Origin: Yuukianura sp. NJ FZ-2021
Taxonomy: Eukaryota
DNA length: 64,000 bases
Assembly (NCBI GenBank): GCA_046563655.1
Contig: CM102287.1
Span: 1,240,001-1,304,000, forward strand
Direction of reading: 5' to 3'
Shown in pieces: positions 1 to 62,699 of this stretch. How positions within the stretch are numbered: position 1 is the first letter of the stretch; the number at the start of each line of letters is the position of its first letter. A program made the position numbers and the translations under genes. The notes beneath the pieces are model-generated. The model ran no database searches and was not told the DNA's origin. It saw only the letters and a list, made by a program, of their open reading frames with translations.

Positions 1-756
1 CTTGTAAGGGCCAATCCATTTCTTGGTGAATTTTCCAACGTGACCTTTTTTCCTCTGAAAGTTCCGGAGTAGAACTTTCATGCCAGCGACGTAGGTGGGG
101 AAACGAATCTGCATTTGAGCTTTTACTCGTAAGAGCTGTTGCTCACGAGACAACTCATGGGCTACGTTGTTGGCGATGAATAATCTGTCAAAAGAATCAT
201 TAGGGGTCAAATAATCTTGGGGAAGGGGAAACAACTTATCTACCGGCAAAACCGGCTCCCGACCAAAGACAAGAAAATATGGGGAGAAATTAGTTACCCG
301 ATGTACAGAACAATTGACGGAGAAAACTGCTTTGGGAAGATGGATATCCCAATCTTTATGGTTTTCACTTACGAATTTGGCGATGACAGACTTTACCGTT
401 CCGTTATGTCTCTCACAGACACCGTTTGACTTGGGATTATAGGCAGTCGTTGAGCGGTGGTCAATGGAATGGAGGGCAAGGAAATCCTCAAACTCTTCGG
501 ACTGGAAAACCGTACCACGGTCTGACAGAATTATCTTGGGAATACCATGACGACACAGGACGTGTTTGGTAAGGACTTTGATCGCTTGAGCAGAATCTGC
601 TGAGGGGACGGGCCAAGCTTCAACGTAACGAGTGTGGAGATCAACTATGGTCAAAATATAGGTGTTTCTCCTCGCTGTGATGGGAAAGGGGCCAAGATAG
701 TCCACAGCAAGTGCGTTAAAGGGAATGGCGGGAACGTCAAGGCCAACGCTATTCGG
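1..756 (-). CDS. Integrase catalytic core and GPY/F region of gypsy pol; separated from the main pol frame by a 1-bp frameshift, truncated by the window edge
   Basis: Hand translation is open and reads AVDYLGPFP...ILSDRGTVF...NGVCERHN (DDE triad) and KFTKKWIGPYK (GPY). It joins the main pol frame if one base is added to the G5 run at 755-759. Confidence 0.9.
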
Positions 757-3700
757 GGGAGAGCGAAGTTCCGTCGATTATGTACTTGACACAAGTGGCA
801 AGATGTGACAAATTTGACTAAGTCACGGTACATCCGGGGCCAGTAGAACCGGGGACGAAGGAGATGCCAGGATTTGTGTAGTCCAAGGTGACTAAGGGAG
901 TCATTGTGGACGGATTCCATGGAGGATTTTCTGAGGGACTTAGGGAGACAAAGACGCCAAAGGTTACCAAATTCAGAGTAGTTCATTTTGTACAAAACTC
1001 CATCACGCAGACTAAATTCGCTCAACTTTTTCGGTTCCGCTAAGGAGTGGGGCTTACCTAGCTGCTCTGCTTTTAAGTACTCAATTATGGGTAGCCATTC
1101 TGGCTCTTTAAGTTGGAGTTCCTTCAACTTTGACTCACGGACTTTCCGGGGAGCTTCAGGGGAAACTGCTAAAGCCAGAAGATGATGTGTAATGGCCAAA
1201 TGGTCTGTGTCAGAAGGGGCGGGGTCAACGGGGTTTCGGGAAAGCGGGTCCGCATCCGTGTGGATACGGCCACTCTTGTGGACAACAGTAAAGTCGTAGG
1301 GCTGAAGGGCTAATGACCAACGGGAAATTTGGCCATAGGGGTCCTTGAATTTGAGCATGTCACAGAGGGAATGGTGGTCTGTGACAACTTTAAAATGACG
1401 CCCGTATAAATACGGACGAAATTTTTCGACAGCCCAAACAAACGCTTTCATTTCCAATTGGGGGGTTCCAAACTTTAACTCGGAGGGGGACAGAGCTCGC
1501 GAAGCAAAAGCTACAACTCTCTCTACACCATCTTGGATTTGACAAAGCGTTGCTCCGAAACCAAGTCCAGACGCATCACAATGGACGGACGTCTCTGCTT
1601 CTTCATCGGGAAACGCTAGGACTGGGGGAGAAGTAAGTTTGTCTTTCAGGGTTTGGAACGCAACTTCTGCTTCGGGGGTCCAGAAAAATGGGGAACCACG
1701 CTTTGCAGCGATTATAAGGTGGAGGGGACGGGCAATTTCCGCGAAACCTTTAATAAACCTTCTGTAGTAACTGCAAAGACCAACAAAGGAACGGACATTT
1801 TTAACAGTCGTGGGGGTAGGGAAATCACGTACTGCTTGGGTTTTCTGGGGATCAACTGCAATTCCTTCACGGGAGACAATGTGACCAAGGAATTTCAAAG
1901 AATCTTCGGCAAAGTAACACTTTTTGGGTTTTAAACTGAGACCAGCTTTACGGAGAGCACAGAAAATCTGCGCTAGGTGGTCTAAGTGTTCTTCAAAGGA
2001 ACGGGAGTAACAAACGACATCGTCTAAGTAAACGAGTGCTATGGACCATTTTAAACGACCAAGGACATTGTCAATAAGACGCTGCCAAGTCGCTGGGGCA
2101 TTGGTTAATCCAAAGGGCATGACGACGAATTCGTACTGTCCGTCGGGGGTTACGAAGCTGGTTTTCTCTCTGTCCTCGGGTTCCACCTCAACTTGGTAGT
2201 ACGCCTGGTCACAATCCATGGAGGAGAAGTACTTGGCGCCATTTAAACGGTCCAGGGTGTCGTCTATTCGGGGGAGGGGATAGGAATCCTTTCTTGTCAC
2301 TGCGTTGACTTTACGAAAGTCAACGCAAAACCGCCAACTTTCGTCGGGCTTTTTGACAAGAAGGACTGGGGAACACCAAGGGCTATCGCTGGGGGTTATC
2401 GCCTTAAGATCCAAAAGACGCTCGACTTGGTTTTGAATTTCTCTCCGCTCGGTGAATCCTGTTCTATGGGGATGGGAAGCTATCGGTTTCGCAGTTCCTG
2501 TGTCAATTTTGTGGGTCGTTAAATGAGTACGGCCAAGAGTTGCTGGATCAAAATTAAAAACATCCAAATTAGATACAAGAAAATCCTGCATCTTTTGGCG
2601 CTGTTCAGGGGTTAGGGTTTTGGAGATCTTAAACGCCTCAATCCTCTTTTGCAATTTCAGAGACGCAATGTCATCATCATCATCAACTGCAAATCCGAGG
2701 ATTTCGTGCGCTGGGAGAGAGGAATGGGACAAATTGGAGCTCACATGACCGAATTCGTCTAGGTCACAGAGTACTGAGGACTCTGCGAAGGGTTCGAAGG
2801 TGCCTATGGAGATGTTTTGCAGAAGTTTTACTGGTCGGTCTCCCAAATTCCACAAGAAAGTAACTCCAGCGCCATCCTTGAGAGTAGAAATAAAATTTCC
2901 AATGGCGATATGTTTTGCATACTGGAGCTCCTGACGAGGGGAAACAAGAACATCCCCGGTGAAAGGGAGATCTGTCTTGACGCTTACGCGTTTCATAGTT
3001 CTTGGGTTGACGATGATGGACCTGACCAGACGTAGGCACGGAGGGGGCGAAGATTTTTGTGACAAATTCGAGTTACTGACGAAGGAAACTTCAGAGTCAA
3101 GTAACGAAAGGGATTTAGGGGAATCAGACGAATTCTGGGTCATGTCATGAACTAGTTTAGGGTGAATGGCCGTACATGGGGGATTTGACACAGGTTCTGG
3201 ATCCGACGCAATGGGGGAGCTGGGGGTATCTGAAACTTGTTCAGTTTCAGACAATGTTAATTTGTTTAGAACAGGGACTTGGGATTTAGGTACACAGACA
3301 TACTCATTTCTGAGGTCTGTGCAGGGGAGTCCACCTTTTACAAGGCGCTCGTTAGCGGGATCCAAGAGAAAATGTTCTGAACGGAGAAAGTCAGAACCCA
3401 AAACGATTTCATTTGAAAGGTGCTGGAAAATGTAGAACGGGTATTGGAAGGGGACGCCATCAATGGAGAAAGAAATCATTGTAGTCTGGGGGGAATTACA
3501 ACGGACGTACGAACCAAAGGACAGTTTGACACGAACGGGTTCCACATCAACCGCTTGGGACACAATATGGGGGAATTTTCGGAGAAATTCGGGGTGGACA
3601 CAACAAAGGGAAGCACCTGTGTCACACAGGACTCGGAGGGTTTGGGTACCGAAGACTACATCAGTATGGAACGTAGAATGTTGGGCAGAATGAAATTGAG

Positions 3701-4508: not shown

Positions 4509-5818
4509 GGAGGCGGTGTTGGTTTAGGAAGGACGGCTGCAGCGATGTTCTGGAGAAGATCCGTCATTGTTCCGAAAGCAGTCATCATCGTCTTGGTCCA
4601 ATCAGCATCTGGACGAGCAACATTTTGAGACTGTGCTGGAGGGTTTGGACTGGTTTGCAATGGGCGAGTGTCAATATTTGGATAGGGGCGTTGAACAGCC
4701 TGGCTATAATAGCCTTGCTGCTGGGGGGATACAGGCTGAGGGGGGTGGTTTTCTGATAATGCACGCTGAGGGCCATTGTAACCAGGAAGCCGCCAAGTTG
4801 GAGTGTGACAGTGTTTTCTAATGTGCCCGCTTCGGTTACAGCGATTGCAAATCGGTCGTCCTTCTGCATCCCGACGATTCACGAAACTGGTTGGTTGTGA
4901 AGTCGTTTGAGCAGCAGCTTGAGGGATAGCAGGAACATTGGGCTGTTGTTGGATCTGGGGAGGGGACGACTGGGGGAACTGCATTGGGGGGTTATGGGCA
5001 GCTGTCATCTCAAAAGCCTGCATAGAGACTACAGGGGAAGAGCCATCTTTGGGACGGGTGTGGACTTCTGCTACTCGTCGTAGAATTTTCTGAAAGTCGG
5101 AGGGGGTTTGGATATTGAGCATTACAAAACCTTTTTCAAGGTCTGCTGGGAGTCCACGAATGAGATATTCAACCTTTCGGCTGTCACTCATTTTGGGATC
5201 CAAACGAGACAAAATAACTATTTTGTCCGCTACGTATTTGTCAATACAGTCACCCAATTTGTAACGCAGGGACTTATTCTGGGCTCTGAAGTCATCTCGA
5301 CGCTCTTTAAGGGAAAAATGGGAGATGAACTGATTTCCAAATTCAGTCCAGACAGCATCAGGATCTTTAGTGGGATCTTCCAGTTGTTCTCGAAAGTGGG
5401 GCCAAATTGAAATGAACCAAGAGCTAGCGACACCAGTCAAAACTCTGTCGAAGTGGCTCAATGCTCCATAAGATCCGAATCCAGTTCCTCTCAAATCGTA
5501 TTCGTAGCGTGCAAGGAATTCTGCAGGGTCACTCGTTCCATCGTACTTCCGGATATGCTTGAAAATTTTAATGTCCTGGGTACATGGGAAGGGAGCATTG
5601 GGAGCCATATTGGCTGCAGTACCATCGCTATACACAGAACCAGGAGTAGCTGGTTGCTGCGGATTGTTAGGAACTGGAGGAGGCATAGCAAAGGTAGGAT
5701 GGTAGTTTTGTTGTGCTGGCTGCAGTGGAATTGTGGACTGAGATGGGGAAGGGCCTTGTTGTTGCGGTTGACCTTGTACTGGAGGGGAAGATCTGGGTCT
5801 CGCAAAATATGTCAACAT
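4496..5818 (-). CDS. gag: Gypsy Gag, 440 aa
   Basis: Retrotransposon capsid-like region (KYDGTSDPAEFL...LTGVASSWF), CX2CX4HX4C knuckle CNRCNRSGHIRKHC, Q/P-rich ends. Confidence 0.93.
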   Translation of the reverse strand: MLTYFARPRSSPPVQGQPQQQGPSPSQSTIPLQPAQQNYHPTFAMPPPVPNNPQQPATPGSVYSDGTAANMAPNAPFPCTQDIKIFKHIRKYDGTSDPAEFLARYEYDLRGTGFGSYGALSHFDRVLTGVASSWFISIWPHFREQLEDPTKDPDAVWTEFGNQFISHFSLKERRDDFRAQNKSLRYKLGDCIDKYVADKIVILSRLDPKMSDSRKVEYLIRGLPADLEKGFVMLNIQTPSDFQKILRRVAEVHTRPKDGSSPVVSMQAFEMTAAHNPPMQFPQSSPPQIQQQPNVPAIPQAAAQTTSQPTSFVNRRDAEGRPICNRCNRSGHIRKHCHTPTWRLPGYNGPQRALSENHPPQPVSPQQQGYYSQAVQRPYPNIDTRPLQTSPNPPAQSQNVARPDADWTKTMMTAFGTMTDLLQNIAAAVLPKPTPPPENQ

Positions 5819-5830
5819 TGGGGAATCTCC

Positions 5831-6244
5831 TTAGTATCTTCGTTCTTGCAGACGGGGATTCTCGTATTCAAAGACAAGCCAGCCCTGGGTACTTGCGTAG
5901 TATTTGAAACACCAGCGGTAAATGGGACTAAAGAAACTCCAATGATAGTACAGAAGTCTAACCAGAAGAGCTAGGCAGTAGTACGTTTCAGTTCCGACAA
6001 GGACTCCAAGTAGTTCTGCGTAGGCTCGAGGATTACGTCGTAAGTAGAGAACTGGGGCAACGTGTAGGGCCAGAAAATCAACAAAGACTGAAAAAGTCGA
6101 TGCTACACAGGACTGGGTAATTTCTGCAACCAGTAGGGAGAATAGGTACAGGACTTCGGTTAGGAACAAGATTAAACAGCTTGCAAAAAATAAAGCTGTT
6201 GCAGCAATGAGAATAGTTCGGATTATGGGCCAAGCGATCCACAT
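5831..6244 (-). CDS. 137-aa multi-hydrophobic ORF immediately upstream of gag (candidate membrane protein)
   Basis: ATG start, same strand as gag, stop 12 nt before the gag ATG. It has several long apolar stretches and a basic RRNPR patch. Confidence 0.6.
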   Translation of the reverse strand: MWIAWPIIRTILIAATALFFASCLILFLTEVLYLFSLLVAEITQSCVASTFSVFVDFLALHVAPVLYLRRNPRAYAELLGVLVGTETYYCLALLVRLLYYHWSFFSPIYRWCFKYYASTQGWLVFEYENPRLQERRY

Positions 6245-6291
6245 TTGCAGTGGGTTTCACTTAAACCACAACCACTTTTCAGCGTTTGGGC

Positions 6292-6408
6292 TTATTGGAG
6301 GAAATTGACAAGGATCGAAATCAAAAAGAATAGGGTAAGGTACTGGACAACAACTGCAATAACTGCTATGAGTATGATCAGAACGATGGCAATGAAGGGG
6401 TGGGACAT
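6292..6408 (-). CDS. 38-aa hydrophobic small ORF MSHPFIAIVLIILIAVIAVVVQYLTLFFLISILVNFLQ (not in the ORF track)
   Basis: Hand translation from ATG (6408) to TAA (6292). It is almost entirely apolar with a clear period-3 pattern and is more GC-rich than the AT-rich spacer upstream. Confidence 0.5.
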   Translation of the reverse strand: MSHPFIAIVLIILIAVIAVVVQYLTLFFLISILVNFLQ

Positions 6409-6608
6409 CTCTCGGGTCAGTTCAGGGACTTTCTATAATACTTAAGAAATTGAATTAATTAAACAAATACTTTAAGAATTTTAAATAGTTTGAACTTACT
6501 ACTAGAAAAATGAAATACAAAATTCAAAAAAATTTATGGGGGGGTACTTTAGAAGCTGCTGTTCAGGGCTATGGTTTCAAAACGAAACCAAAATCCACCA
6601 AACAGAAC

Positions 6609-6728
6609 TTAAAATCGAAGAAAGAATAGAACAATAAACAAAAAGATAACGAGCTGTAGAGACGGAGCAGCCAAGCCAAACCAAATTACAAAACCGTAGA
6701 GCCACAAAGTCAATTCAATAACTGACAT
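6609..6728 (-). CDS. 39-aa hydrophobic small ORF MSVIELTLWLYGFVIWFGLAAPSLQLVIFLFIVLFFLRF
   Basis: ATG-initiated C-terminal part of the track ORF 6609-6857; two apolar segments joined by AAPS. Confidence 0.45.
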   Translation of the reverse strand: MSVIELTLWLYGFVIWFGLAAPSLQLVIFLFIVLFFLRF

Positions 6729-7585
6729 TCTGAATTTTCTTGAACCACATTGGAAGGAATAGGATTTTAGGAACTTGGGTAACTTCCGTAGATTTGCTTG
6801 CGATTGAAAATCGCAAGAGCGGGAAAATCTCCAAATTCCGAGGATTAGGGACACCAAAAGTTAACGTACTATTTCTAGTAGCTAGGCGAATGTACAAAGT
6901 TTTTCAACTTTTTAGAAATTTGGGCAGGGGTTTGGGACGACAAAACAACTTTTGATTTTTAAAAGTGGACAAAAAATTTTTAATTCGAATTAATTAGGAC
7001 GAAAACGCAACGTATTTTGAATTTAGGAAACGATTAGAGCCGGTTTCTGAAAAATCCGACTAGTCAGGGGAAAAGTGAAGCCTGCGTACGGTTGTACTTG
7101 CGGGCTAATAGGAAATCGGGCAAATCCGCCGACTCTGGGGATTAGTCACTTTTGCAAATAAATTTGCGAAAGCGCGAAAATTTCAAACTGTTTTAGATTT
7201 CAAAAAAATTTTGACAGGGGGTGTTAGGGGAAACCAATTTTTAGATTTAGGACGTTGTACCAAATTTCAAAAACCAAAATTTCGAAAAACTTTCAATTTA
7301 AGGGGCAGGGGGCTATAACTTTTGGAAAAAGGGGCTAGATGGATGGGGATTAGGAGCTGTGTTAGCTGGGGAGCTGTTTTTTAGGTAGCTGTGGCGCTGC
7401 GCTATCTTTAAACAAAACTCGAATTTGAAAAAAAAACGCTTATTTTGAAAAAAAAACGCTAAGTTTTTGAAAATTTAAAAAATTTTGACAGGGGACGGGC
7501 GTATTTTTACAAAAAGTTGCTGGGGGGGACACGTTTGCTCAAAAAAACAAAAAAACAAAACGCGCAAAGAAAAACGAAAGAACGC

Positions 7586-7601
7586 TGACCTTGTGTGACC
7601 T
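7586..7601 (-). promoter_or_regulatory. Perfect DR4 nuclear-receptor element in the gypsy leader
   Basis: Plus strand reads TGACCT TGTG TGACCT, i.e. AGGTCA-n4-AGGTCA on the minus strand, with both half-sites extended as CAAGGTCA. Confidence 0.5.
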
Positions 7602-7957
7602 TGTCACAGGCAGACGAAGGACGAAGAAGATGACGTGGTCCGAGGTGACGTGGCCAAGTGATGTGGAGCGTGGAGAGGGTGTGGAGCGTGGAATTCGGCT
7701 CTACGGCTGCTTTGGCTGGTGATGTGGCGTGTGTTGGGTGGTGTGGAGCGTGGCTTTTGGCTGGTACGGCGTGGCTCTCGCTCCGAACTCGCTTTTCCAG
7801 AAAGATCTGGAAATTATCCAAAAAAAAATATTTTAGAAAAAAATGAAACAATGGAAAAAAATTTCCTAAAAATGAAAAAAATTAGGGTGGGGTCACGGTG
7901 GGTCCTTTGGTGGAGCCGGTTGGCTCCGTTTGGTATGATTCCGCTTCGGTTGTGTAG

Positions 7958-7973
7958 AGGTCAAGTGAGGTCA
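7958..7973 (+). promoter_or_regulatory. Second perfect DR4 element, next to the PBS
   Basis: AGGTCA AGTG AGGTCA. Confidence 0.5.
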
Positions 7974-7979
7974 CGGGTC

Positions 7980-8002
7980 TCGATTCCCGGCTGATGCGCC
8001 CA
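7980..8002 (-). promoter_or_regulatory. Primer-binding site, tRNA-Gly-like
   Basis: Plus strand TCGATTCCCGGCTGATGCGCCCA resembles the animal tRNA-Gly(GCC) 3' end TCGATTCCCGGCCGATGCACCA (recalled from memory; imperfect match). Confidence 0.65.
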
Positions 8003-8492
8003 CTTCAGGGAAAGCTCGGAGGTGAACTCCCCAACGGGCCGACTCGCGGTCACCCGAGAACGTCTGACGGCGGAAATAAAGGGGCAGAGGTCACGGGAGC
8101 TACAAGAATTGGATTAGTAATTTATTGAACAAACAAAAGATACAGTTACGGCCAATTCGTAGTAGTCGAAGAGACGAGCGGTCCTGGTCGGATCAACCAG
8201 GTATCCCTGGTTTGTCCAGGAAGTCCAGTGGAGGTGAATTGAGGTCAAATCCGGGTCAATAGAGGCAGTAGCGGGTCCAGACACGAAGAAAGAAGATGGC
8301 TGCTACTGGGAACTGGAGTGACGAGGTCTTCTCCTTGTGAGATGTTGTGGACGACTGTGTGGAGGAGGACGAGAAGATGGAGGAAGATGAAGATGATGAT
8401 GCAACTGCCAGAAGAAGCGGAGGAGTACAGGAGCGGAGGAGTACGAGGGAACCACGAAGGCTAGAGAGGGGTTTTGGGGATACCTCCCCACA
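8003..8492 (-). repeat. Putative 5' LTR of the gypsy element, ~490 bp
   Basis: Starts with TG at the satellite junction, has AATAAA on the minus strand at 8121-8126 and ends at the PBS. The inner end is not a canonical CA, and the partner LTR is outside the window. Confidence 0.65.
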
Positions 8493-11400
8493 GAGGATTT
8501 CAAAAATATAATTTACTTTCTGTTCATTCTCACATTTGCATGTTCATTCTCACAAATTTAAGTCGTTTTGCGTCAAAATGGTGCTCGGCATTCCCCTGGG
8601 TGCCGTATTCCAACCCCAGATAAAATTCGAGGCGGAGCGATTTATCCCGACTTTTAAGTCCGCCCTATCCAGATTTAATGGCGATCTATCCACACCAATG
8701 AAACTTGGGGTCCTGCAGTACGTTTCATAAGGATTTCAGAAAACTAACTCATTTTCACCCGGCATCGTTCCGCGCGGAGGTTTTTCGAATGTTTTGTTTT
8801 GAAACAAATTTTCATAAATAAAAGTAACGAGATGAGGGACGACACAGCAAGTGAAAGTGGGTTCCTGTAGCACTTTTTATGAGGATTTCAAAAATGTTGT
8901 TGCCTTTTACCCAGCATCGTTCCGCAATGCATTTCTTTTGAATTCTCTGCTTTGAAACATGAATTTTCATAAATAAAGGTAACAAGATGAGGGACGACAC
9001 AGCAAGTGAAAGTGGGTTCCTGTAGCACTTTTTATGAGGATTTCAAAAATGTAGTTGACTTTTACCCAGCATCGTTCCGGAATGCATTTCTTTTGAATTC
9101 TCTGTTTTGAAACATGAATTTTCATAAATAAAGGTAACAAGATGAGGGACGACACAGCAAGTGAAAGTGGGTTCCTGTAGCCCTTTTTATGAGGATTTCA
9201 AAAATATAATTTACTTTCTGTTCATTCTCACATTTGCATGTTCATTCTCACAAATTTAAGTCGTTTTGCGTCAAAATGGTGCTCGGCATTCCCCTGGGTG
9301 CCGTATTCCAACCCCAGATAAAATTCGAGGCGGAGCGATTTATCCCGACTTTTAAGTCCGCCCTATCCAGATTTAATGGCGATCTATCCACACCAATGAA
9401 ACTTGGGGTCCTGCAGTACGTTTCATAAGGATTTCAGAAAACTAACTCATTTTCACCCGGCATCGTTCCGCGCGGAGGTTTTTCGAATGTTTTGTTTTGA
9501 AACAAATTTTCATAAATAAAAGTAACGAGATGAGGGACGATACAGCAAGTGAAAGTGGGTTCCTGTAGCACTTTTTATGAGGATTTCAAAAATGTTGTTG
9601 CCTTTTACCCAGCATCGTTCCGGAATGCATTTCTTTTGAATTCTCTGCTTTGAAACATGAATTTTCATAAATAAAGGTAACAAGATGAGGGACGACACAG
9701 CAAGTGAAAGTGGGTTCCTGTAGCACTTTTTATGAGGATTTCAAAAATATAATTTACTTTCTGTTCATTCTCACATTTGCATGTTCATTCTCACAAATTT
9801 AAGTCGTTTTGCGTCAAAATGGTGCTCGGCATTCCCCTGGGTGCCGTATTCCAACCCCAGATAAAATTCGAGGCGGAGCGATTTATCCCGACTTTTAAGT
9901 CCGCCCTATCCAGATTTAATGGCGATCTATCCACACCAATGAAACTTGGGGTCCTGCAGTACGTTTCATAAGGATTTCAGAAAACTAACTCATTTTCACC
10001 CGGCATCGTTCCGCGCGGAGGTTTTTCGAATGTTTTGTTTTGAAACAAATTTTCATAAATAAAAGTAACGAGATGAGGGACGACACAGCAAGTGAAAGTG
10101 GGTTCCTGTAGCACTTTTTATGAGGATTTCAAAAATGTTGTTGCCTTTTACCCAGCATCGTTCCGGAATGCATTTCTTTTGAATTCTCTGTTTTGAAACA
10201 TGAATTTTCATAAATAAAGGTAACAAGATGAGGGACGACACAGCAAGTGAAAGTGGGTTCCTGTAGCCCTTTTTATGAGGATTTCAAAAATATAATTTAC
10301 TTTCTGTTCATTCTCACATTTGCATGTTCATTCTCACAAATTTAAGTCGTTTTGCGTCAAAATGGTGCTCGGCATTCCCCTGGGTGCCGTATTCCAACCC
10401 CAGACAAAATTCGAGGCGGAGCGATTTATCCCGACTTTTAAGTCCGCCCTATCCAGATTTAATGGCGATCTATCCACACCAATGAAACTTGGGGTCCTGC
10501 AGTACGTTTCATAAGGATTTCAGAAAACTAACTCATTTTCACCCGGCATCGTTCCGCGCGGAGGTTTTTCGAATGTTTTGTTTTGAAACAAATTTTCATA
10601 AATAAAAGTAACGAGATGAGGGACGACACAGCAAGTGAAAGTGGGTTCCTGTAGCCCTTTTTATGAGGATTTCAAAAATGTAATTTACTTTCTGTTCATT
10701 CTCACATTTGCATATTCATTCTCACAAGTTTAAGTCGTTTTGCGTCAAAATGGTGCTCGGCATTGCCCTGGGTGCCGTATTCCAACCCCAGATAAAATTC
10801 GAGGCGGAGCGATTTATCCCGACTTTTAAGTCCGCCCTATCCAGATTTAATGGCGATCTATCCACACCAATGAAACTTGGGGTCCTGCAGTACGTTTCAT
10901 AAGGATTTCAGAAAACTAACTCATTTTCACCCGGCATCGTTCCGCGCGGAGGTTTTTCGAATGTTTTGTTTTGAAACAAATTTTCATAAATAAAAGTAAC
11001 GAGATGAGGGACGATACAGCAAGTGAAAGTGGGTTCCTGTAGCACTTTTTATGAGGATTTCAAAAATGTTGTTGCCTTTTACCCAGCATCGTTCCGGAAT
11101 GCATTTCTTTTGAATTCTCTGTTTTGAAACATGAATTTTCATAAATAAAGGTAACAAGATGAGGGACGACACAGCAAGTGAAACTGGGTTCCTGTAGCCC
11201 TTTTTATGAGGATTTCAAAAATATAATTTACTTTCTGTTCATTCTCACATTTGCATGTTCATTCTCACAAATTTAAGTCGTTTTGCGTCAAAATGGTGCT
11301 CGGCATTCCCCTGGGTGCCGTATTCCAACCCCAGATAAAATTCGAGGCGGAGCGATTTATCCCGACTTTTAAGTCCGCCCTATCCAGATTTAATGGCGAT

Positions 11401-14400: not shown

Positions 14401-14945
14401 ATAAATAAAGGTAACAAGATGAGGGACGACACAGCAAGTGAAAGTGGGTTCCTGTAGCACTTTTTATGAGGATTTCAAAAATGTTGTTGCCTTTTACCCA
14501 GCATCGTTCCGGAATGCATTTCTTTTGAATTCTCTGCTTTGAAACATGAATTTTCATAAATATAGGTAACACGATGAGGGACGACACAGCAAGTGAAAGT
14601 GGGTTCCTGTAGCACTTTTTATGAGGATTTCAAAAATGTAGTTGACTTTTACCCAGCATCGTTCCGGAATGCATTTCTTTTGAATTCTCTGTTTTGAAAC
14701 ATGAATTTTCATAAATAAAGGTAACAAGATGAGGGACGACACAGCAAGTGAAAGTGGGTTCCTGTAGCCCTTTTTATGAGGATTTCAAAAATATAATTTA
14801 CTTTCTGTTCATTCTCACATTTGCATGTTCATTCTCACAAATTTAAGTCGTTTTGCGTCAAAATGGTGCTCGGCATTCCCCTGGGTGCCGTATTCCAACC
14901 CCAGACAAAATTCGAGGCGGAGCGATTTATCCCGACTTTTAAGTC
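8493..14945 (+). repeat. Satellite array, left segment: ~155-bp monomer family in higher-order repeats of 388, 543, 698 and 1008 bp
   Basis: Each unit is a 236-bp X monomer, a 152-bp Y monomer and n x 155-bp monomers (first unit: 8493-8728, 8729-8880, 8881-9035, 9036-9190). There are 12 unit starts. Confidence 0.98.
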
Positions 14946-15440
14946 TGTAGGATAATTGGGGTTATTTCTATTTTTAGTTAAGACTAACTTTAGCTTCCCG
15001 CCCTTCAAAACGAAAGGTCAGTTTTTGATGAGACTTGGTGGGCTTATAGGCTTAAGTGTTTAGTATATCCCCTGTAATTTCTAGCTTTCCGACAAGTCAG
15101 GTTTGTAAGTAGTGGGTGGAGATAGGGTGCGACGTTAGCGTCTGGCGTCTGGCCTTCGGCTATTCTGTCTTTTCTCCTCTCCCTCTTTTTGTGTATTCCC
15201 ATAAGTTTAGTATAAGAAAAAAGACAAGATTCAGAGATTGAAGAGACAACACATAAGTTTAGTTCTAAGTTGTCAATAATTGGATTAATTGGTAAAGAAT
15301 ATTAATAAACCAGTAAAACTAACATCGACAACAGCCCGAACGATCAGTCCATTTAAGCAGCGTTTGAGAGCCGGCCAAGTTACAGAACTCCCATTGATAT
15401 AGCGTAATCGACGGGTAGTTGGTTAGCGCCATATTCTACA
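14946..15440 (+). repeat. 5' LTR of BEL/Pao A, 495 bp
   Basis: TGTAGGATAA...ATATTCTACA; direct repeat of 21221-21715. Confidence 0.97.
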
Positions 15441-15444
15441 TTTG

Positions 15445-15457
15445 TGGTGACCCTCGG
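15445..15457 (+). promoter_or_regulatory. Primer-binding site, tRNA-Trp-like
   Basis: TGGTGACCC lies 4 nt after the LTR and matches the first 9 nt of the known tRNA-Trp PBS TGGTGACCCCGACG. Confidence 0.65.
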
Positions 15458-15651
15458 AGCAAACTTGGAGTTGTTGGATCCACGCAGCCTTGGAGGATCG
15501 TTCTGGAAGGATCACTGGACATCACTTATAAACAACAGTATACGTAGAGGCGACCACTGCCGGAGTGTGGTTAAGCAAGGTGATTGTCGCTCCAGTGACG
15601 ATTGTTAGTATTCTTACTAATTTTGGTTTTGTTTGAATCTTATTTTGAGAC

Positions 15652-18600
15652 ATGGATCGTGCTAAGAAGGCAAGAGATCTACAGAGACTTGGCGTGACGG
15701 ACCTAATCGCGAATTTAGAGTCCGAATTGAAAAGGGAATCGGTTTCCGAAAATGACGTCATCGCGGCTGTCACGATGCTGGATGATGCAGTGGAGAGATT
15801 GGCGGATCTTCACGAACAGGTGTTGACTTTTCTTTTGGATGATGAATCATCAACCCCAGAGACGTTGCACACGGAGTGGCGTGTCAACAATGACTTCAAG
15901 AAGAGAGCAATGCTAGTGAAGATTGAAGCACAGAAGATTCTCCATCCACCGACCAAGTCACAGAATCGTTCGTCGAATGATGATGACGCATCGTCTACCA
16001 GCCGACACAGGAAGATGAAGTTACCGAAGACAGAGTTACGCAAGTACTCTGGAGAACTGGTCGACTGGATTGGATGGTGGTCACAATTTAAGAAGATTGA
16101 CGACGATGACGAAATACACGTTGTGGACAAGTTCGGGTATCTCGTTCAGTGTATGGTGCGAGGATCCAAGGCAGAGGAAGTAGTCAAGCGGTACCCTGAG
16201 TCGGCTCAGAACTACCCAAAGGCTTTGGAGGCACTGAAAGAGAGGTTCGGGAATCCGAAACTGCTAAAACAAGTGTATGTTCGAGAATTAATGAAGTTGA
16301 TGTGGGACACTTGGGCGAAGGAGAAGAAGCCATTGGATATCCTTTATGGGAAATTAGAAGCTTCTCTTCAGTCTCTACAGTCCCTTGGTGTAAGTGTTGA
16401 CAACATGGTTGAACTGTTGTTTCCTATGGTGGAATCCTGCTTGCCGGAGGACATTTTGGTTGCATGGCAACGAAGTTCCGACTTTGGGCGTGATGGGTCC
16501 AAGGAGAACCCACCAAAGAGTGAACTTGATTTCCTACTGGCATTTCTCAAGAGAGAAGCGGGCAACAAGGAACAACGGGCACTTACTCAGATTGGTTTTG
16601 GACCTGGTCCTAGCCAAAAGAAGAAAAGCCACAACAGTCACAGGGATGAAGAAGAAGATGTGCCCACAGCGGCTGGACTGTTCAGTGGACAATTTGAAAA
16701 CAAAGAGAGAAACCAGTGCTTGTTTTGTGAAAAGCAACATCCCTCTAAAGAGTGCTTTAAGGCACAGAAGATGACATTAGAAGACAGGAAAGAGGTCATC
16801 AAGAAGAAGGGTGTTTGTTTTTCGTGTTTAAAAGGCGGACACAGGGCTAATAAGTGTCGTAGTACTCCTCAGTGCCTTGTCTGCGGTAAGAAGCATTTGG
16901 TTCTACTCTGCCCCCAGATCTCATCGTCGTCCAAAGGTTCCAGTGAAGGAAAAGACAAAGATGATGCGAAGAAGAATCAGACGGTGCTCTCAAGTCTCAA
17001 CTGTACCAGCGAAGTCGTACTCCAGACGCTGATCGTGCAGTTGGAGAATCCAGTGAGCCATAAGAAGAAGAACGTTCGTGTTCTACTCGACTGCGGGAGT
17101 CAAAAGTCATACATCCTAGATTGTACGGCCAAGGAGCTGGATCTGGATCAGAAGGACACCGTGGTCATGAATCATTCATTGTTTGGAGGGACAAATGTCG
17201 TAGGGAATAAGCATTCAATCTACAAGGTTCTAATCGGCAGTGTTTATTCTAAGTTTTCAGTTCCTCTCCTTCTCTTGGACCAGCATCAGATCTGCGGAGC
17301 AATTCCGAGAATTACGCCTGGCCCATGGATGAAGATGCTCAGAGACAGAGGAATTGTGTTGAACGACTTTGACCCGAAGAATCCCGTCGAAATTGAAGTT
17401 TTGTTGGGTGCAGACACCATTGGACAATTTCTGACAGGGAAGATCTTTCGTCTCAAGAACGGGCTGACGGCAACCGAGACAAGATTGGGTTGGACGGTCA
17501 TGGGAGCTACAGGAAGACAGAGCAATTCTGAAGACGTAGCCATGACTGTGGTTTCCATGACTATCGCTAGCTCGACAGTCGCCCAGCTTTGGTCTTTGGA
17601 TGTCCTTGGTATTCGTGACCCCGTGGAGAAGAAGACGCAAGAAGACCGAGAGAGAGAGGCTATTGAAAATTTCCAGAAGACAGTTACTACAGATCCTGAG
17701 GGAAGATACACGGTCTCTCTACCTTGGATCAATGGCTTTCAATCTCTTCCAACTAATCGTGCAGTGGCTCAGAAGCGGTTGGAAAACACCACCAGGAAGT
17801 TAGTGTCTCTGAATCGGTTCTCAGAGTATGACAAAGTGTTTCAAGAGTGGGAATCCGAGGGCATAATTTCAGTAGTCGAGGACTTGGGTGACAGTGAGAG
17901 TGTTCCGTGTCATTATGTTCCTCATCGCGCCGTCTTCAAGGCCAGCTTAACTACTCCAGTGCGTCCAGTGTTCGACGCTTCGTGTAAGGTCGGGAGGAAT
18001 CCGTCACTTAATGAGTGCCTGGAGAAAGGACCGAATCTGCTGGAACTTCTTCCTTCAATTTTACTTCGTTTCAGGATGGGGAAGATTGGTGTGACAGCAG
18101 ATATCCGTAAGGCCTTTCTCATGATCAATGTGAAAGAAAGTGATCGTGATTTCCTGCGATTCTTATGGTGGGAGGACAAGGAACGACAAAAAGTGAAAGT
18201 GTTTCGGCACAACCGAGTCGTTTTTGGGATGAACTGTAGTCCATTCCTTTTAGGTGCAGTTGTCTTCCATCATTTGAACCAGCATCGGTGTGAAAATCCC
18301 GAGGTCGTAAGTTTGATTGAAAGGTCTCTTTACGTGGACAATGTAGCTCTTACAGTGGACAGTGATTCCGAGTATGAAAAAGTGAAATCAGTTTCTTCAG
18401 ACATTTTTTCACAGGCTACAATGGACCTTAGACAGTGGGAGAGAACCGGTGTTTGGACTGATCAAATCATTACCAGTGTTCTAGGGATGAAGTGGGATAA
18501 GAAGGCGGACACGATCTTTTGTGATGTGGTTCCTACCATTATTCCATTAAAAGTGACTAAAAGAGTTATTTTATCTCAATTGCAGAAACTCTTTGACCCC

Positions 18601-20991
18601 CTAGGACTTTGGACTCCAGTTGTCACTTTACCGAAAGTACTTCTTCAACAAGCGTGGAACGAGAGCAAGACTTGGGATGAAGAAGTATCTACTGAAATGA
18701 AGACAGAATTCCTCAGTTGGTCAAAGGAATTAGCTGAAGTCAGTGACAAAGTTCAACTACCTCGAGACTGTACCAGTGGAACAACCAGAGACAACCGAAA
18801 GATCCAAATTCATGTGTTTGGTGACGCAAGTAAGAAGGCTTACGCAACAGTGGTGTTTCTTCGCATTGAAACTCAAGACGGTGTCAAAATCCGATTTATT
18901 CAAGCGAAATCAAGAGTAGCGCCACTGAAACCAACCACAATACCCAGATTGGAGCTTCTTTCGTGTTGCATTTCAGCAAGACTGGTGACAGCAATTAAGT
19001 CAGCATTAGACCTCGGAGACGACGTTCCGACTTTCCTTTGGACGGATTCCAGCACGGCCCTGTCGTGGATTCGCCGAAGTGACGAGTGGGGAACGTTCGT
19101 GGGGAATAGGGTCAAGGAGATCCTGAAGCTGACGAAAGTAGAAGACTGGAACCACATTCCGGGTTTGGAAAATCCGGCAGATCTGCCATCCAGGGGGACT
19201 TCTCCGACCAGGTTCGTATTGTCGCGATGGTGGGAGGGACCTGATTGGTTGAAATTGGAAAAGGAGATGTGGCCCAGATCAGAATCATCGGTGGACGAAG
19301 ATGCAGTCAATCAGGAGCGAAAGAAGAGTATCACGACACTCACGAACATAACTACTCCTGCGCCTGCCTCGTCACCATGGTATGTCACCAAGAATTCGTT
19401 TCATCAGACTCTTCGTGTTTTTGCTTATGTCATCCGGTTTGTGAGTCTTTTGAAGAAGGAGTCTACAGAGAAGTCCGAGATTCCTACCATCACAGAACTG
19501 GAAGAGGCAGAACGAAGATTGATCATGATCATTCAAGAGGAATCTTTTCCCATGGACAAAAGTGTAATTCAGGGTTTGAGAGTGCTAGTGGACTCAGATG
19601 GACTACTAAAAGTGAAAACCAAAGTGACTAATCGAGTTGACACAGACACTTTTAGGAAACCAATTTTACTTCCACATTCTCATCCCATTGTCAATCTCAT
19701 CATCCGAGACACTCACATCTTCAACGCACACGGAGGAGCACAGCTGATGATGGCCAAGTTAAGAGAAAAGTACTGGATCATCCAGGGAAGAAGGGCCATC
19801 AAGAAAGTCATAACCAAGTGCATCGTGTGTAAGAGGTTTGATGGTAAGACTGTTGAAGTTGTGGCTAGTGCTCTACCGGAACCGAGGGTAAGGGAGGCCA
19901 GTGCCTTTGAAGTGACTGGAGTGGATCTGGCAGGCCCCTTAACTCTAAAGAACAGGAAGAAAGCATACATTGTCATGTTTACTTGTGCAGTGTTTCGGTG
20001 TGTTCATCTGGAGGTGACCGAATCATTGTCTACTGATGACTTTCTTCTCTCATTTATCAGATTCTGCAAAAGGAAACAACGGCCATCGATCGTCTACTCT
20101 GACAACGGAACGAACTTCGTCGGAGCAGTGAATCTGTTTAAGGAGATCGACTGGGACCTTGTTCAAGAGAAGACGCAGAAACAGAAAATCAAATGGATCT
20201 TCAATCCACCTTCCGCACCGTGGTGGGGCGGATGGTGGGAGAGGCTCATCAAGAGCACCAAGGATCTTCTCCGCAGGATGCTTGGATTTCAGAAGCTGAC
20301 TTACGTTCAATTGGAAACTGTCTTGTGCGAAGTGGAAGCTGCGGTGAACCACAGACCATTGACGTACGTCACAGAAGATCAAGACGACTTTGTACCATTG
20401 ACCCCGGCCATGTTCATCCATAATCTTCCGAATTGCGAAGTGCCGGAGGCTCAACTGATCATGCAGAAAACCCTTGGACAAGAGAAGAAATGGCTGGACC
20501 AGTTACTGCAGGAAGTGAAACAGCGTTTTCGTTCTGAGTACTTGGGTCAGTTAGTCCAACGGGGCAAGGAACAGAAGACCAGGACTTTCAGCATTGGAGA
20601 GATCGTGCTCATCGAAGTGGATAATAAGAAGCGGATTTTCTGGCCAATGGGGAGGATTCTGGAGCTGCTTCCTGGGAAGGATGGAGAAATTCGGGTAGCC
20701 AGATTGAAGACGAAGAATGGAGAGCTGCTACGTCCCATCCAACGACTCGTGCCAATGGAATTGAGACATGACGAGATACCGGAGCCACCAGTCAAGACAG
20801 CCGAGAGCAACATTGTCAAGACAGCCGAGAGCTCCAACGTCATCGACCACGAATCTGCAGGTGACAGCGACAGCGACACTTATTGTGAGTGCCTGCCGTG
20901 TCAAGACGAAGATGAGGTCATCACTGCAGAACCAGAACAGAAGACAAGAAGCGGACGGACCATTCGGAAACCGATTCGCTATGGACAGTGA
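15652..20991 (+). CDS. BEL/Pao Gag-Pol polyprotein, 1779 aa
   Basis: KLPKTEL gag domain (DUF1759-like), three Cys/His knuckles, LLDCGSQ protease, RT (ADIRKAF, FGMNCSPF, YVDN), HVFGDAS RNase H/Pao domain, integrase (GVDLAGP, SDNGTNF, WWERL). Confidence 0.97.
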   Translation: MDRAKKARDLQRLGVTDLIANLESELKRESVSENDVIAAVTMLDDAVERLADLHEQVLTFLLDDESSTPETLHTEWRVNNDFKKRAMLVKIEAQKILHPPTKSQNRSSNDDDASSTSRHRKMKLPKTELRKYSGELVDWIGWWSQFKKIDDDDEIHVVDKFGYLVQCMVRGSKAEEVVKRYPESAQNYPKALEALKERFGNPKLLKQVYVRELMKLMWDTWAKEKKPLDILYGKLEASLQSLQSLGVSVDNMVELLFPMVESCLPEDILVAWQRSSDFGRDGSKENPPKSELDFLLAFLKREAGNKEQRALTQIGFGPGPSQKKKSHNSHRDEEEDVPTAAGLFSGQFENKERNQCLFCEKQHPSKECFKAQKMTLEDRKEVIKKKGVCFSCLKGGHRANKCRSTPQCLVCGKKHLVLLCPQISSSSKGSSEGKDKDDAKKNQTVLSSLNCTSEVVLQTLIVQLENPVSHKKKNVRVLLDCGSQKSYILDCTAKELDLDQKDTVVMNHSLFGGTNVVGNKHSIYKVLIGSVYSKFSVPLLLLDQHQICGAIPRITPGPWMKMLRDRGIVLNDFDPKNPVEIEVLLGADTIGQFLTGKIFRLKNGLTATETRLGWTVMGATGRQSNSEDVAMTVVSMTIASSTVAQLWSLDVLGIRDPVEKKTQEDREREAIENFQKTVTTDPEGRYTVSLPWINGFQSLPTNRAVAQKRLENTTRKLVSLNRFSEYDKVFQEWESEGIISVVEDLGDSESVPCHYVPHRAVFKASLTTPVRPVFDASCKVGRNPSLNECLEKGPNLLELLPSILLRFRMGKIGVTADIRKAFLMINVKESDRDFLRFLWWEDKERQKVKVFRHNRVVFGMNCSPFLLGAVVFHHLNQHRCENPEVVSLIERSLYVDNVALTVDSDSEYEKVKSVSSDIFSQATMDLRQWERTGVWTDQIITSVLGMKWDKKADTIFCDVVPTIIPLKVTKRVILSQLQKLFDPLGLWTPVVTLPKVLLQQAWNESKTWDEEVSTEMKTEFLSWSKELAEVSDKVQLPRDCTSGTTRDNRKIQIHVFGDASKKAYATVVFLRIETQDGVKIRFIQAKSRVAPLKPTTIPRLELLSCCISARLVTAIKSALDLGDDVPTFLWTDSSTALSWIRRSDEWGTFVGNRVKEILKLTKVEDWNHIPGLENPADLPSRGTSPTRFVLSRWWEGPDWLKLEKEMWPRSESSVDEDAVNQERKKSITTLTNITTPAPASSPWYVTKNSFHQTLRVFAYVIRFVSLLKKESTEKSEIPTITELEEAERRLIMIIQEESFPMDKSVIQGLRVLVDSDGLLKVKTKVTNRVDTDTFRKPILLPHSHPIVNLIIRDTHIFNAHGGAQLMMAKLREKYWIIQGRRAIKKVITKCIVCKRFDGKTVEVVASALPEPRVREASAFEVTGVDLAGPLTLKNRKKAYIVMFTCAVFRCVHLEVTESLSTDDFLLSFIRFCKRKQRPSIVYSDNGTNFVGAVNLFKEIDWDLVQEKTQKQKIKWIFNPPSAPWWGGWWERLIKSTKDLLRRMLGFQKLTYVQLETVLCEVEAAVNHRPLTYVTEDQDDFVPLTPAMFIHNLPNCEVPEAQLIMQKTLGQEKKWLDQLLQEVKQRFRSEYLGQLVQRGKEQKTRTFSIGEIVLIEVDNKKRIFWPMGRILELLPGKDGEIRVARLKTKNGELLRPIQRLVPMELRHDEIPEPPVKTAESNIVKTAESSNVIDHESAGDSDSDTYCECLPCQDEDEVITAEPEQKTRSGRTIRKPIRYGQ

Positions 20992-21199
20992 GATCATTTC
21001 ATTTAGTTAAGTGGTAATTTTAAGATTTGATTTCAGTTTTAATTTTCATTTTAGAGTTTAAGTTTTGTTTTCATTGATTCATTTCTAGGTTAAGTGTTTT
21101 CGTTATTTTTTAACTTAAGGCACTTTCCCCTTTGTTGATGGTGCTAAGCCGTAACGTGCTATTTTAATTTTAATTTTGACTTTCCCTTTCGTTAGCACT

Positions 21200-21220
21200 A
21201 AAGGCAAAGGTGGGAGTAAA
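21200..21220 (+). promoter_or_regulatory. Polypurine tract
   Basis: AAAGGCAAAGGTGGGAGTAAA immediately before the 3' LTR. Confidence 0.8.
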
Positions 21221-21715
21221 TGTAGGATAATTGGGGTTATTTCTATTTTTAGTTAAGACTAACTTTAGCTTCCCGCCCTTCAAAACGAAAGGTCAGTTTT
21301 TGATGAGACTTGGTGGGCTTATAGGCTTAAGTGTTTAGTATATCCCCTGTAATTTCTAGCTTTCCGACAAGTCAGGTTTGTAAGTAGTGGGTGGAGATAG
21401 GGTGCGACGTTAGCGTCTGGCGTCTGGCCTTCGGCTATTCTGTCTTTTCTCCTCTCCCTCTTTTTGTGTATTCCCATAAGTTTAGTATAAGAAAAAAGAC
21501 AAGATTCACAGATTGAAGAGACAACACATAAGTTTAGTTCTAAGTTGTCAATAATTGGATTAATTGGTAAAGAATATTAATAAACCAGTAAAACTAACAT
21601 CGACAACAGCCCGAACGATCAGTCCATTTAAGCAGCGTTTGAGAGCCGGCCAAGTTACAGAACTCCCATTGATATAGCGTAATCGACGGGTAGTTGGTTA
21701 GCGCCATATTCTACA
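21221..21715 (+). repeat. 3' LTR of BEL/Pao A, 495 bp
   Basis: Matches the 5' LTR except G15234 versus C21509 (by-eye comparison). Confidence 0.97.
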
Positions 21716-53046: not shown

Positions 53047-53146
53047 NNNNNNNNNNNNNNNNNNNNNNNNNNNNNNNNNNNNNNNNNNNNNNNNNNNNNN
53101 NNNNNNNNNNNNNNNNNNNNNNNNNNNNNNNNNNNNNNNNNNNNNN
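53047..53146. other. Assembly gap of 100 N
   Basis: Exactly 100 N, a typical placeholder of unknown size. Adjacency and orientation across it are unverified. Confidence 0.99.
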
Positions 53147-60780: not shown

Positions 60781-62681
60781 TTTGTGGTGACCCTCGGAGC
60801 AAACTTGGAGTTGTTGGATCCACGCAGCCTTGGAGGATCGTTCTGGAAGGATCACTGGACATCACTTATAAACAACAGTATACGTAGAGGCGACCACTGC
60901 CGGAGTGTGGTTAAGCAAGGTGATTGTCGCTCCAGTGACGATTGTTAGTATTCTTACTAATTTTGGTATTTTGTTGAATCTTGTTTTGAGACATGGATCG
61001 AGCCAAGAGAGCACGAGACATGAAAAGACTGGATGTTGCGGATCTTACTGCAAATTTAGAATCCGAACTCCAGAGGGAATCGATTTCCGAAGATGACGTC
61101 ATCGCTGCAGTGTCAATGCTAGATGACGCAATGAACTCGTTGGTGGATCTGAATGAACAAGTGGAGACTTTTCTTTTGGATGATGAGTCGACTTCGACCG
61201 AGATGTTGGATACGGAGCGTCGTGCCAACAATGACATCAAAAGAAGAGCCACTTTGATGAAGATTAAGGCAGAACGGACACTGCATCCGCCAGTCAAGTC
61301 ACAGAATCGTTCGTCAAATGATGATGGCGCATCGTCCACCAGCCGACACAGAAAGATGAAGTTACCAAAGACAGAGTTACGTAAGTACTCTGGAGAACTG
61401 GTCGACTGGATTGGGTGGTGGTCACAATTCAAGAAGATTGACGACGATGACGAAATACACGTTGTGGACAAGTTCGGTTATCTCGTTCAATGCATGGTGC
61501 GAGGATCCAAGGCAGAGGAAGTAGTCAAGCGGTACCCAGAGTCGGCCGAGAACTACCCAAAGGCTTTGGAGGCACTGAAAGAGAGGTTCGGGAATCCGAA
61601 ACTGCTGAAACAAGTGTATGTTCGAGAATTAATGAAGTTGATGTGGGACACTTGGGCGAAGGAGAAGAAGCCATTGGACATCCTTTACGGAAAATTAGAA
61701 GCTTCTCTTCAGTCTCTACAGTCCCTTGGTGTAAGTGTTGACAACATGGTTGAACTGTTGTTTCCTATGGTGGAATCCTGCTTGCCGGAGGACATTTTGG
61801 TTGCATGGCAACGAAGTTCCGACTTTGGGCGTGATGGGTCCAAGGAGAACCCACCAAAGAGTGAACTTGATTTCCTACTGGCATTTCTCAAGAGAGAAGC
61901 GGGCAACAAGGAACAACGGGCACTTACTCAGATTGGTTTCGGACCTGGTCCTAGCCAAAAGAAGAAAAGTCACAACAGTCCCAGAGAAGAAGAAGATGTG
62001 CCCACAGCGGCTGGACTGTTCAGTGGACAATTTGAAAACAAAGAGAGAAGCCAGTGTTTGTTCTGTGAGAAGCAGCATCCCTCTAAAGAGTGCTTCAAGG
62101 CACAGAAGATGACATTAGAAGACAGAAAGGAAGTCATCAAGAAGAAGGGTGTTTGTTTTTCGTGTTTAAAAGGCGGACATAGGGCTAATAAGTGTCGTAG
62201 TACTCCTCAGTGCCTTGTCTGCGGTAAGAAGCATTTGGTTCTACTCTGCCCCCAGATCTCATCGTCATCCAAAGGTTCCAGTGATGGAAAAGACAAAGAT
62301 GATGGGAAGAAAAATCAGACTGTGCTCTCAAGTCTCAACTGTACCAGCGAAGTCGTACTCCAGACGCTGATCGTGCAGTTGGAGAATCCAGTGAGCCATA
62401 AGAAGAAGAACGTTCGTGTTCTACTCGACTGCGGGAGTCAGAAGTCATACATCCTAGATTGTACGGCCAAGGAGCTGGATCTGGATCAGAAGGACACCGT
62501 GGTCATGAATCATTCATTGTTTGGAGGGACAAATGTCGTAGGGAATAAGCATTCAATCTACAAGGTTCTAATCGGCAGTGTTTATTCTAAGTTTTCAGTT
62601 CGTCTCCTTCTCCTGGACCAGCATCAGATCTGCGGAGCAATTCCGAGAATTACGCCTGGCCCATGGATGAAGATGCTCAGA
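60276..62681 (+). mobile_element. 3'-truncated sister copy of BEL/Pao A (LTR, PBS, gag, protease)
   Basis: LTR, PBS and leader are homologous to 14946-15651. Homology to family A ends abruptly at ...GATGCTCAGA (62681). Confidence 0.95.
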
Positions 62682-62699
62682 AGCTATACTGAGTGGTAG
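60993..62699 (+). pseudogene. Truncated BEL/Pao Gag-protease, 568 aa; the last few codons come from the interrupting sequence
   Basis: Nearly identical to aa ~102-563 of the 1779-aa ORF. Confidence 0.93.

Follow-up and report, generated by a model that had tools for sequence, protein, structure and literature searches.

A candidate cassette of small membrane-protein ORFs in the start-codon-poor leader of a Ty3/gypsy element from Yuukianura sp. NJ FZ-2021

The first 8.5 kb of a 64,000-nucleotide (nt) stretch of DNA from Yuukianura sp. NJ FZ-2021 (assembly GCA_046563655.1, contig CM102287.1, positions 1,240,001 to 1,304,000; this whole stretch is called the window below, and all coordinates are window coordinates) hold, on the minus strand, the 5′ part of a Ty3/gypsy element in which about 2.2 kb of leader lie between the 5′ LTR (long terminal repeat) and the gag ATG. 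Three ATG-initiated open reading frames (ORFs) on the same strand, here named A, B and C, lie in the last part of this leader, and their limits, as well as the 12 nt between the stop of ORF C and the gag ATG (5818), are exactly as given in the original prediction. The best reading of this arrangement, drawn from the sequence and held tentatively at slightly less than an even chance, is that of an accessory membrane-protein cassette, polycistronic on the genomic RNA and expressed by leaky scanning. The part of this reading that can be held most firmly is the coding status of ORF C, and its weakest part is the biological role. Two points go beyond the original prediction, namely that ORF C is in frame with gag and that there are only four sense ATGs up to gag. 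The features concerned are the following, in the order of transcription.

8492-8023 (inner end approximate), minus strand: 5′ LTR, with TG...CA ends, AATAAA at 8126 and no sense ATG.
6751-8022, minus strand: ATG-free part of the leader.
6715-6750, minus strand: 11-codon ORF, opened by the first ATG of the transcript and overlapping the start of ORF A in another frame.
6728-6609, minus strand: ORF A, 39 amino acids (aa), ATG start, hydrophobic throughout, one Arg.
6408-6292, minus strand: ORF B, 38 aa, ATG start, no charged residue.
6244-5831, minus strand: ORF C, 137 aa, ATG start, with a basic loop, RRNPR, at residues 69-73.
5818-4496, minus strand: gag, 440 aa, with a weak Retrotrans_gag match (E 0.0031) that falls short of the Pfam cut-off.

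ORF C is very probably a real protein-coding gene, since its sequence combines a distant homologue with an improbable openness and the lack of any internal ATG. Among 1,835,955,588 representative proteins, one matched ORF C at E <= 0.001: P0001, a protein of 112 aa from an environmental sample (E 2.4e-4), which is 39% identical over query residues 2-108. Pairwise BLASTP with composition adjustment gave 1e-13, and the local alignment score of 155 compares with 38.9 +/- 7.1 in 2000 shuffles of P0001 (z about 16). The two proteins share 41 invariant columns, including W2, W5, C23, C46, D56, P64, R69, R70, R73, Y75, E86, Y88, Y89, R96, Y99, Y100, H101, S106 and P107, and these invariants take in the majority of the polar residues in the core, namely D56, R69, R70, R73, E86, R96 and H101. 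By Kyte-Doolittle hydropathy (window 15, threshold 1.6) ORF C has three hydrophobic segments, at residues 1-42, 45-68 and 81-95; Asp56 belongs to the second, the third contains or adjoins Glu86, Arg96 and His101, and P0001 has all four residues. The RRNPR patch, which the original prediction had picked out correctly, corresponds to RLRR..R in P0001. The start methionines of the two proteins are at most eight residues apart, and P0001 ends at about ORF C residue 109, with no gag-like continuation. As to openness, when the letters of ORF C were shuffled 20000 times, 35 of the results were free of stops, and a longest ATG ORF of at least 137 aa was obtained in 2.6% of dinucleotide shuffles of the leader (n=1000). 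Its interior holds no ATG in any of the frames, against 4.0 expected (p 0.006). This comparison of sequences places ORF C in a small protein family that is otherwise undescribed, and hydropathy predicts ORF C to be polytopic. PDB sequences gave no match to ORF C at E <= 1. On the opposite strand an ATG ORF of 139 aa (5555-5974, plus strand) overlaps the beginning of gag and the last part of ORF C, and is probably a by-product of coding-strand composition.

All three ORFs had originally been described as strongly hydrophobic, with the caveat that a T-rich coding strand favours such ORFs by chance. For ORF B the description stands and the caveat fails: its hydropathy is about 2.3 (2.30-2.31), against 0.65 +/- 0.39 in shuffles of its own composition, and none of the 5664 stop-free shuffles reached it. 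Codon position 2 of ORF B is 68% T, and since this codon-phased hydrophobic pattern goes beyond that of own-composition shuffles, T-richness does not explain it. ORF B is probably a micropeptide with a single predicted transmembrane segment. Shuffles of 6750-5819 yield chance ORFs of 30-60 aa (n=4988) with a hydropathy of 0.52 +/- 0.46; of these, 0.16% reach the 1.92 that is the mean Kyte-Doolittle value of ORF A and none reach 2.30. The coding status of ORF A is uncertain. Pfam has no match for ORF A and one meaningless match (0.42) for ORF B. ORF B also holds a tandem repeat of 9 nt (three codons) at 6348-6366. Duplication as the origin of the ORFs, with A and B being copies of each other or of the N-terminus of C, was considered and is not supported, the protein scores lying within those of shuffles (A-B p 0.375, A-C 0.62, B-C 0.045) and the DNA-level signal being only marginal (A-B p 0.037, A-C 0.17, B-C 0.04). 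The spacer between A and B is very AT-rich at 6440-6510 (minus strand) and carries strings that resemble a splice donor (GTAAGTT) and an acceptor (TTATAG), roughly 65 nt from each other.

From the first base of the element to gag, the four sense ATGs are located at 6750, 6728, 6408 and 6244, and they open the 11-codon ORF and ORFs A, B and C, the latter three being mutually non-overlapping. Across LTR and leader (8492-5819, 2674 nt) these four compare with 21.8 +/- 4.1 expected, a count as low being found in none of 1000 dinucleotide shuffles. The 5′ LTR has no ATG where 3.4 are expected, the leader from 8010 to 6751 has none against 7.1 +/- 2.2 (0 of 500 dinucleotide shuffles as low), and the last 930 nt of the leader have four against 11.7. 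The avoidance is specific to the strand, the antisense triplet CAT occurring 30 times in 8492-5819 against 35.8 expected, and to the region, as ATG is not depleted in gag (24 vs 21.7) or pol (44 vs 38.5). ATG has the lowest ratio of observed to expected (4/18.6) among the eight most depleted trinucleotides listed, and its z-score is the third lowest of 64, those of CTT and TTA being slightly lower. Like ORF C, ORFs A and B have no internal ATG in any frame. A leader cleared of ATGs is the signature to be expected if ribosomes scan the whole of it. The fourth ORF of the original prediction, a possible 60-aa upstream ORF (uORF) at 6897-6715, does not survive: it starts with TTG, is not hydrophobic, and only its last 11 codons follow an ATG (6750). 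Short tandem repeats are found within the ATG-free leader at 7424-7473 and 7540-7604 (with units of 20 nt x2.4, 8 nt x2.6 and 10 nt x1.9) and might be protein-binding sites.

The start contexts were judged by Kozak's rule as given in PMC5902531, and the host's own consensus may differ from it. None of the upstream ATGs has G at +4, the base being T at all five ATGs when that of gag is included, and two also lack a purine at -3, where the 11-codon ORF and ORF C have C, ORFs A and B have A, and gag has C. Both features expected under leaky scanning are found here, that is, upstream ORFs free of internal AUGs and start contexts that are weak or moderate.

One can picture the last 930 nt of the 2.2-kb leader as a small polycistronic cassette on the genomic RNA. 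Ribosomes would scan through the ATG-cleared leader in a cap-dependent manner and, because the contexts are suboptimal, some of them would initiate at A, B or C while the remainder would leak to gag, in the way that the accessory ORFs ahead of the polyprotein ORF are expressed in rice tungro bacilliform virus (RTBV) and badnaviruses. Reinitiation after the short ORFs may contribute, 47 nt separating the stop of B from the ATG of C and 12 nt the stop of C from the gag ATG; the 47-nt spacing would favour skipping of C, and the ATG-free body of C would then bring the ribosomes to gag. ORF C, probably together with B, would act at a membrane step in the cycle of the element, which could be particle assembly or exit, or cell-to-cell passage. 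It would be neither a homologue of sORF2, the small membrane protein encoded ahead of gag in MDG1-group elements, nor a single-pass fusogen of the FAST type, and ORF A may be merely tolerated or a regulatory uORF. A more far-reaching version is that ORF C founds a new family of small polytopic membrane proteins of retroelements, in which an Asp of one hydrophobic segment and a Glu and an Arg of another are conserved. It would be co-expressed from the AUG-cleared leader with one or two single-helix micropeptides and would serve as an Envelope substitute (for cell-to-cell passage of capsids) or as a factor resembling viroporins, the gypsy lineage concerned having no relation to the sORF2 solution of MDG1; this we consider unlikely, at about one chance in five.

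The element is multi-copy and its copies are diverged, as seen in four DNA runs from two organisms with 204-906 contigs aligned per run. Of the differences, the best-supported are considered here, 40 out of 1697 substitutions and 12 out of 212 indels, and the contig pieces are the longest ones only. Two of the 40 substitutions fall within 5831-6728, one in the A-B spacer (6564) and one at a third codon position of ORF A (6660) that leaves the residue unchanged; the TAA that precedes gag and the start codons of A, B and C are affected by none. None of the 12 indels lies within 5831-6728. Among them are single-base indels further up the leader (7216, 7675 and 7874) and, in pol, an insertion of three bases at 4247, a -1/+1 pair (2092, 2094) and, in a single contig, clustered indels at 3177-3219 that total +3. 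The four listed contig pieces over ORF C have no gaps, and three listed pieces higher in the leader have two to five. These differences fit constraint on the cassette, although so selective a sample cannot serve as a test. In run X4 (organism B) the LTR bins (7953-8500) have depths of 5424 and 2378 against 5-37 in the 28 other bins, and values in the thousands suggest many solo LTRs or an LTR common to another family.

A number of observations weigh against a working membrane-protein cassette. ORF C has a single homologue, P0001, known as a protein without genomic context, not necessarily of retroelement origin and with a C-terminus that is possibly incomplete. Pfam gave no match for ORF C and the ESM Atlas no usable one; a homologous-protein search with ORF C yielded 120 candidates, none at E <= 0.01, and with the ORF C/P0001 alignment it retrieved P0001 again and nothing else. 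The same alignment produced 64 pattern matches in metagenome contigs, 48 in viral contigs and 49 in prokaryote genome contigs, none of which was confirmed, and a degenerate motif pattern produced two, none and four matches, respectively, those in metagenome contigs proving to be chance on translation and the four in prokaryotes likewise being chance. The number of transmembrane segments in ORF C is a count by hydropathy alone, and its mean Kyte-Doolittle hydropathy of 0.72 is borderline against its own composition (p 0.057). The AlphaFold2 model of ORF C, made from a two-row alignment, is poor (pLDDT 68.8, pTM 0.36) and nothing is drawn from it, nor from a fold search of BFVD, which had no match at E <= 0.001. 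For ORF A, which is 51% T, the T-richness caveat holds: shuffles of its own composition reach its hydropathy (p 0.085) and 28% of them remain open, so that the claim of hydrophobicity beyond composition does not extend to it. By Kozak's rule the gag ATG is itself weak, with C at -3 and T at +4. The integrase frame is broken between 777 and 651 in this copy, which is therefore possibly not a working one. Copies without the cassette also exist, as in a contig of run X1 in which 5333 is joined to 6876, with nine other letters between, and ORFs A-C and the first third of gag are missing.

The alternative that survives best, at about one chance in five, is that the leader carries regulatory uORFs only, the four upstream ATGs tuning gag initiation or sorting the RNA between translation and packaging, with peptides that have no function. 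Such sorting by uORFs is well documented in retro- and pararetroviruses (PMC5902531), and the avoidance of ATG leaves little doubt that the leader has been shaped by scanning; A and B are also short enough for reinitiation, and the sequence of A stays within its own composition. However, 137 codons would be long for a uORF of this kind, pure regulation would have no use for the codon-phased hydrophobicity of B (0/5664), and ORF C has a homologue at the protein level in which polar residues are conserved.

It could also be that ORF C is, or was, an N-terminal membrane anchor of Gag, the fusion arising by readthrough or in copies that lack the stop. This we regard as improbable, at about one chance in ten. 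The two share a frame, with one TAA (5833-5831) and four codons between them, but an in-frame position would come about by chance in one case out of three. The 40 best-supported differences include none at 5831-5833, though contigs of runs X3 and X4 bridge the site, and the TAA is thus probably not private to this copy; this check covers only those 40 of the 1697 differences. A G after TAA makes for strong termination, and no known readthrough motif comes next here. Moreover, gag has its own ATG 12 nt downstream, P0001 stops near ORF C residue 109, and a library search without a limit on length found no fused form.

That the ORFs arose by chance in a non-coding leader rich in T, or are decayed and functionless remnants, is similarly improbable, and such an origin is already unlikely for C. 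The T content of the sense strand is indeed 33% in the leader and 41% in 6728-6245, ORF A fits its own composition, ORF C has no Pfam family and only one relative in the databases, and the integrase frame is broken. Against this, chance would have to account for the openness of C (35/20000) and its homologue (z about 16), for the hydropathy of B (0/5664), and for the fact that A-C and the 11-codon ORF hold the sole ATGs in 2.7 kb.

The rest of the element conforms to this classification. Its order of domains by Pfam, gag, protease, reverse transcriptase, RNase H and integrase, is that of Ty3/gypsy (Metaviridae), with the following parts downstream of gag.

4523-651, minus strand: pol frame, with protease, reverse transcriptase, RNase H and integrase zinc finger.
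1-777, minus strand: integrase core (rve, E 5.9e-17), in a frame different from that of pol and continuing past the window edge.

The pol frame is -1 relative to gag, which it overlaps by 28 nt, and its Pfam matches are RVT_1 (E 1.7e-36), RT_RNaseH_2 (E 1.3e-31) and Integrase_H2C2 (E 1.6e-16). The look-alikes of gag in the ESM Atlas are Retrotrans_gag/Ty3_capsid clusters, at 0.94; gag as a query had no match in the homologous-protein search or in viral contigs. The window contains only the 5′ part of the element, its edge falling within integrase, and hence a single (5′) LTR, and any env after pol would lie outside it. This LTR was called from the satellite junction at 8492/8493, satellite identity returning at 8493, and from loose ends of contigs at 8014 and 8024, there being no 3′ LTR in the window for comparison. 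Scans of the window with Rfam and for tRNAs were negative, and the window holds no second copy of the leader or of the ORFs.

The insertion lies in a tandem satellite array of very large size, which occupies 8493-53000 of the window and beyond, with unit spacings of 155 and 543 bp. A 300-nt reference occurs 91 times; among the 30 copies listed, most have 83-100% identity and three have 60-69%. The array is broken at about 14850-21870, where the gap is filled by a Bel/Pao retrotransposon (15649-20991, plus strand) with one open frame of 1780 aa (DUF1759, RVT_1, Peptidase_A17, Integrase_H2C2, DUF5641). More Bel/Pao pieces, integrase/DUF5641 and DUF1759 gag-like, are found at 54277-55638 (minus strand) and 60990-62699 (plus strand). 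Bel/Pao neighbours of this kind suggest an animal host. An inverted repeat, 73% complementary, pairs 19731-20177 with 55103-55549, and an assembly gap of 100 N lies at 53047-53146.

It is only a recent finding that fly retrotransposons lacking Env can pass from soma to germline by means of small accessory membrane proteins encoded upstream of gag, and the published screens target single-pass, myristoylated proteins only. A polytopic protein at the same position, with an environmental relative and an ATG-cleared leader, suggests that the repertoire of such modules is wider than these screens detect. The ORF C cassette would be a concrete and testable candidate module, a variant of this recently recognised arrangement of accessory ORFs, and its leader a clean animal example of the AUG-desert polycistronic design so far best known from plant pararetroviruses. 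If ORF C does belong to a family of Env substitutes or viroporin-like factors, LTR retrotransposons would have invented Env-free membrane machinery a second time and independently.

The original prediction had invoked the small ORFs before gag in MDG1-group elements, one of them FAST-like, and the literature bears this out. In MDG1-group elements (412, mdg1, Stalker, Blood, Tabor) gag is preceded by sORF1 and sORF2, both being translated in flies from the unspliced full-length RNA, and sORF2 is a translated plasma-membrane protein with FAST-like features (10.1101/2025.03.14.642691). Its conservation extends across drosophilids (PMC13486581), and a screen of arthropod Metaviridae revealed 105 sORF2-like ORFs, the criteria being 60-210 aa, a single transmembrane segment, an N-out/C-in orientation and 10-50 aa of N-terminal ectodomain bearing MGxxxS/T; a polybasic stretch behind the transmembrane segment is a further trait of sORF2 and FAST proteins (10.1101/2025.03.14.642691). 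The sORF2-like ORFs are on the sense strand and in most cases upstream of gag, and their proteins have 63-107 aa, a single pass, an ectodomain of about 30 aa and usually a myristoylation motif; the MGxxxS/T motif is, however, missing from two of the six fly sORF2 proteins, and the authors state as a limitation that their screen misses non-myristoylated variants (10.1101/2025.03.14.642691). Reovirus FAST proteins have 80-200 aa, a single pass, a short acylated ectodomain and a polybasic juxtamembrane region (10.1101/2025.03.14.642691).

Compared with sORF2 by its published description rather than by sequence, the cassette is alike in position, with a small membrane-protein ORF and a second small ORF on the sense strand between the 5′ LTR and gag of a Metaviridae element, and perhaps in the RRNPR patch that follows the second hydrophobic segment of ORF C. 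It differs in nearly everything else. ORF C, at 137 aa, is within the length range of the screen, and A (39 aa) and B (38 aa) are outside it. By hydropathy, C has three segments in place of one, and A and B are hydrophobic over almost their full length. No MG...[ST] motif occurs in A, B, C or P0001, MG opens none of the three ORFs, hydrophobicity begins at about residue 1 so that no ectodomain is left, and as to polybasic stretches A has one Arg and B is uncharged. Reovirus FAST proteins likewise share with the cassette their nature as small, virus-encoded membrane proteins and perhaps the polybasic juxtamembrane region, whereas ORF C appears polytopic and A and B have neither ecto- nor endodomain. 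From these sequence traits, membership of the cassette in the sORF2/FAST kind is not supported, and it could be a functional analogue of sORF2 at best. The membrane module that had been proposed stands insofar as at least C behaves as a protein-coding gene, and not as a fusogen of the published description. A true sORF2/FAST-type cell-cell fusogen module has only a very slight likelihood, for, in spite of the same-strand position upstream of gag, the membrane character, the basic patch after a hydrophobic segment of C and a screen that misses non-myristoylated variants (10.1101/2025.03.14.642691), A and B are shorter than 60 aa, C has three hydrophobic segments, and an MGxxxS/T start, an ectodomain of 10-50 aa and a single transmembrane segment with a cytoplasmic tail are absent from all three. 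Titles and abstract openings in the literature revealed no polytopic protein upstream of gag, which does not show that none exists, and the supplementary alignments of sORF2 might hold longer or multi-pass variants.

Two animal retroviruses offer further comparisons. The glyco-Gag of murine leukaemia virus has an upstream in-frame segment for membrane targeting before Gag, in one continuous open frame, unlike the present element, where a TAA parts ORF C from gag. The leader of Rous sarcoma virus holds three short uORFs that regulate translation and packaging; they are much shorter than the ORFs described here and are not hydrophobic peptides. A close parallel in expression would be that of RTBV and the badnaviruses, in which accessory ORFs I and II precede the polyprotein ORF, about 900 nt are without internal AUG, and translation is by leaky scanning (PMC5902531). 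There the accessory proteins are not membrane proteins of the ORF C kind, the leader shunts over many uORFs, and the hosts are plants. In both cases, nevertheless, consecutive accessory ORFs with weak or moderate start contexts stand before the capsid-polymerase ORF in an AUG-cleared region, here 930 nt with four ATGs, from whose sequence leaky scanning is read.

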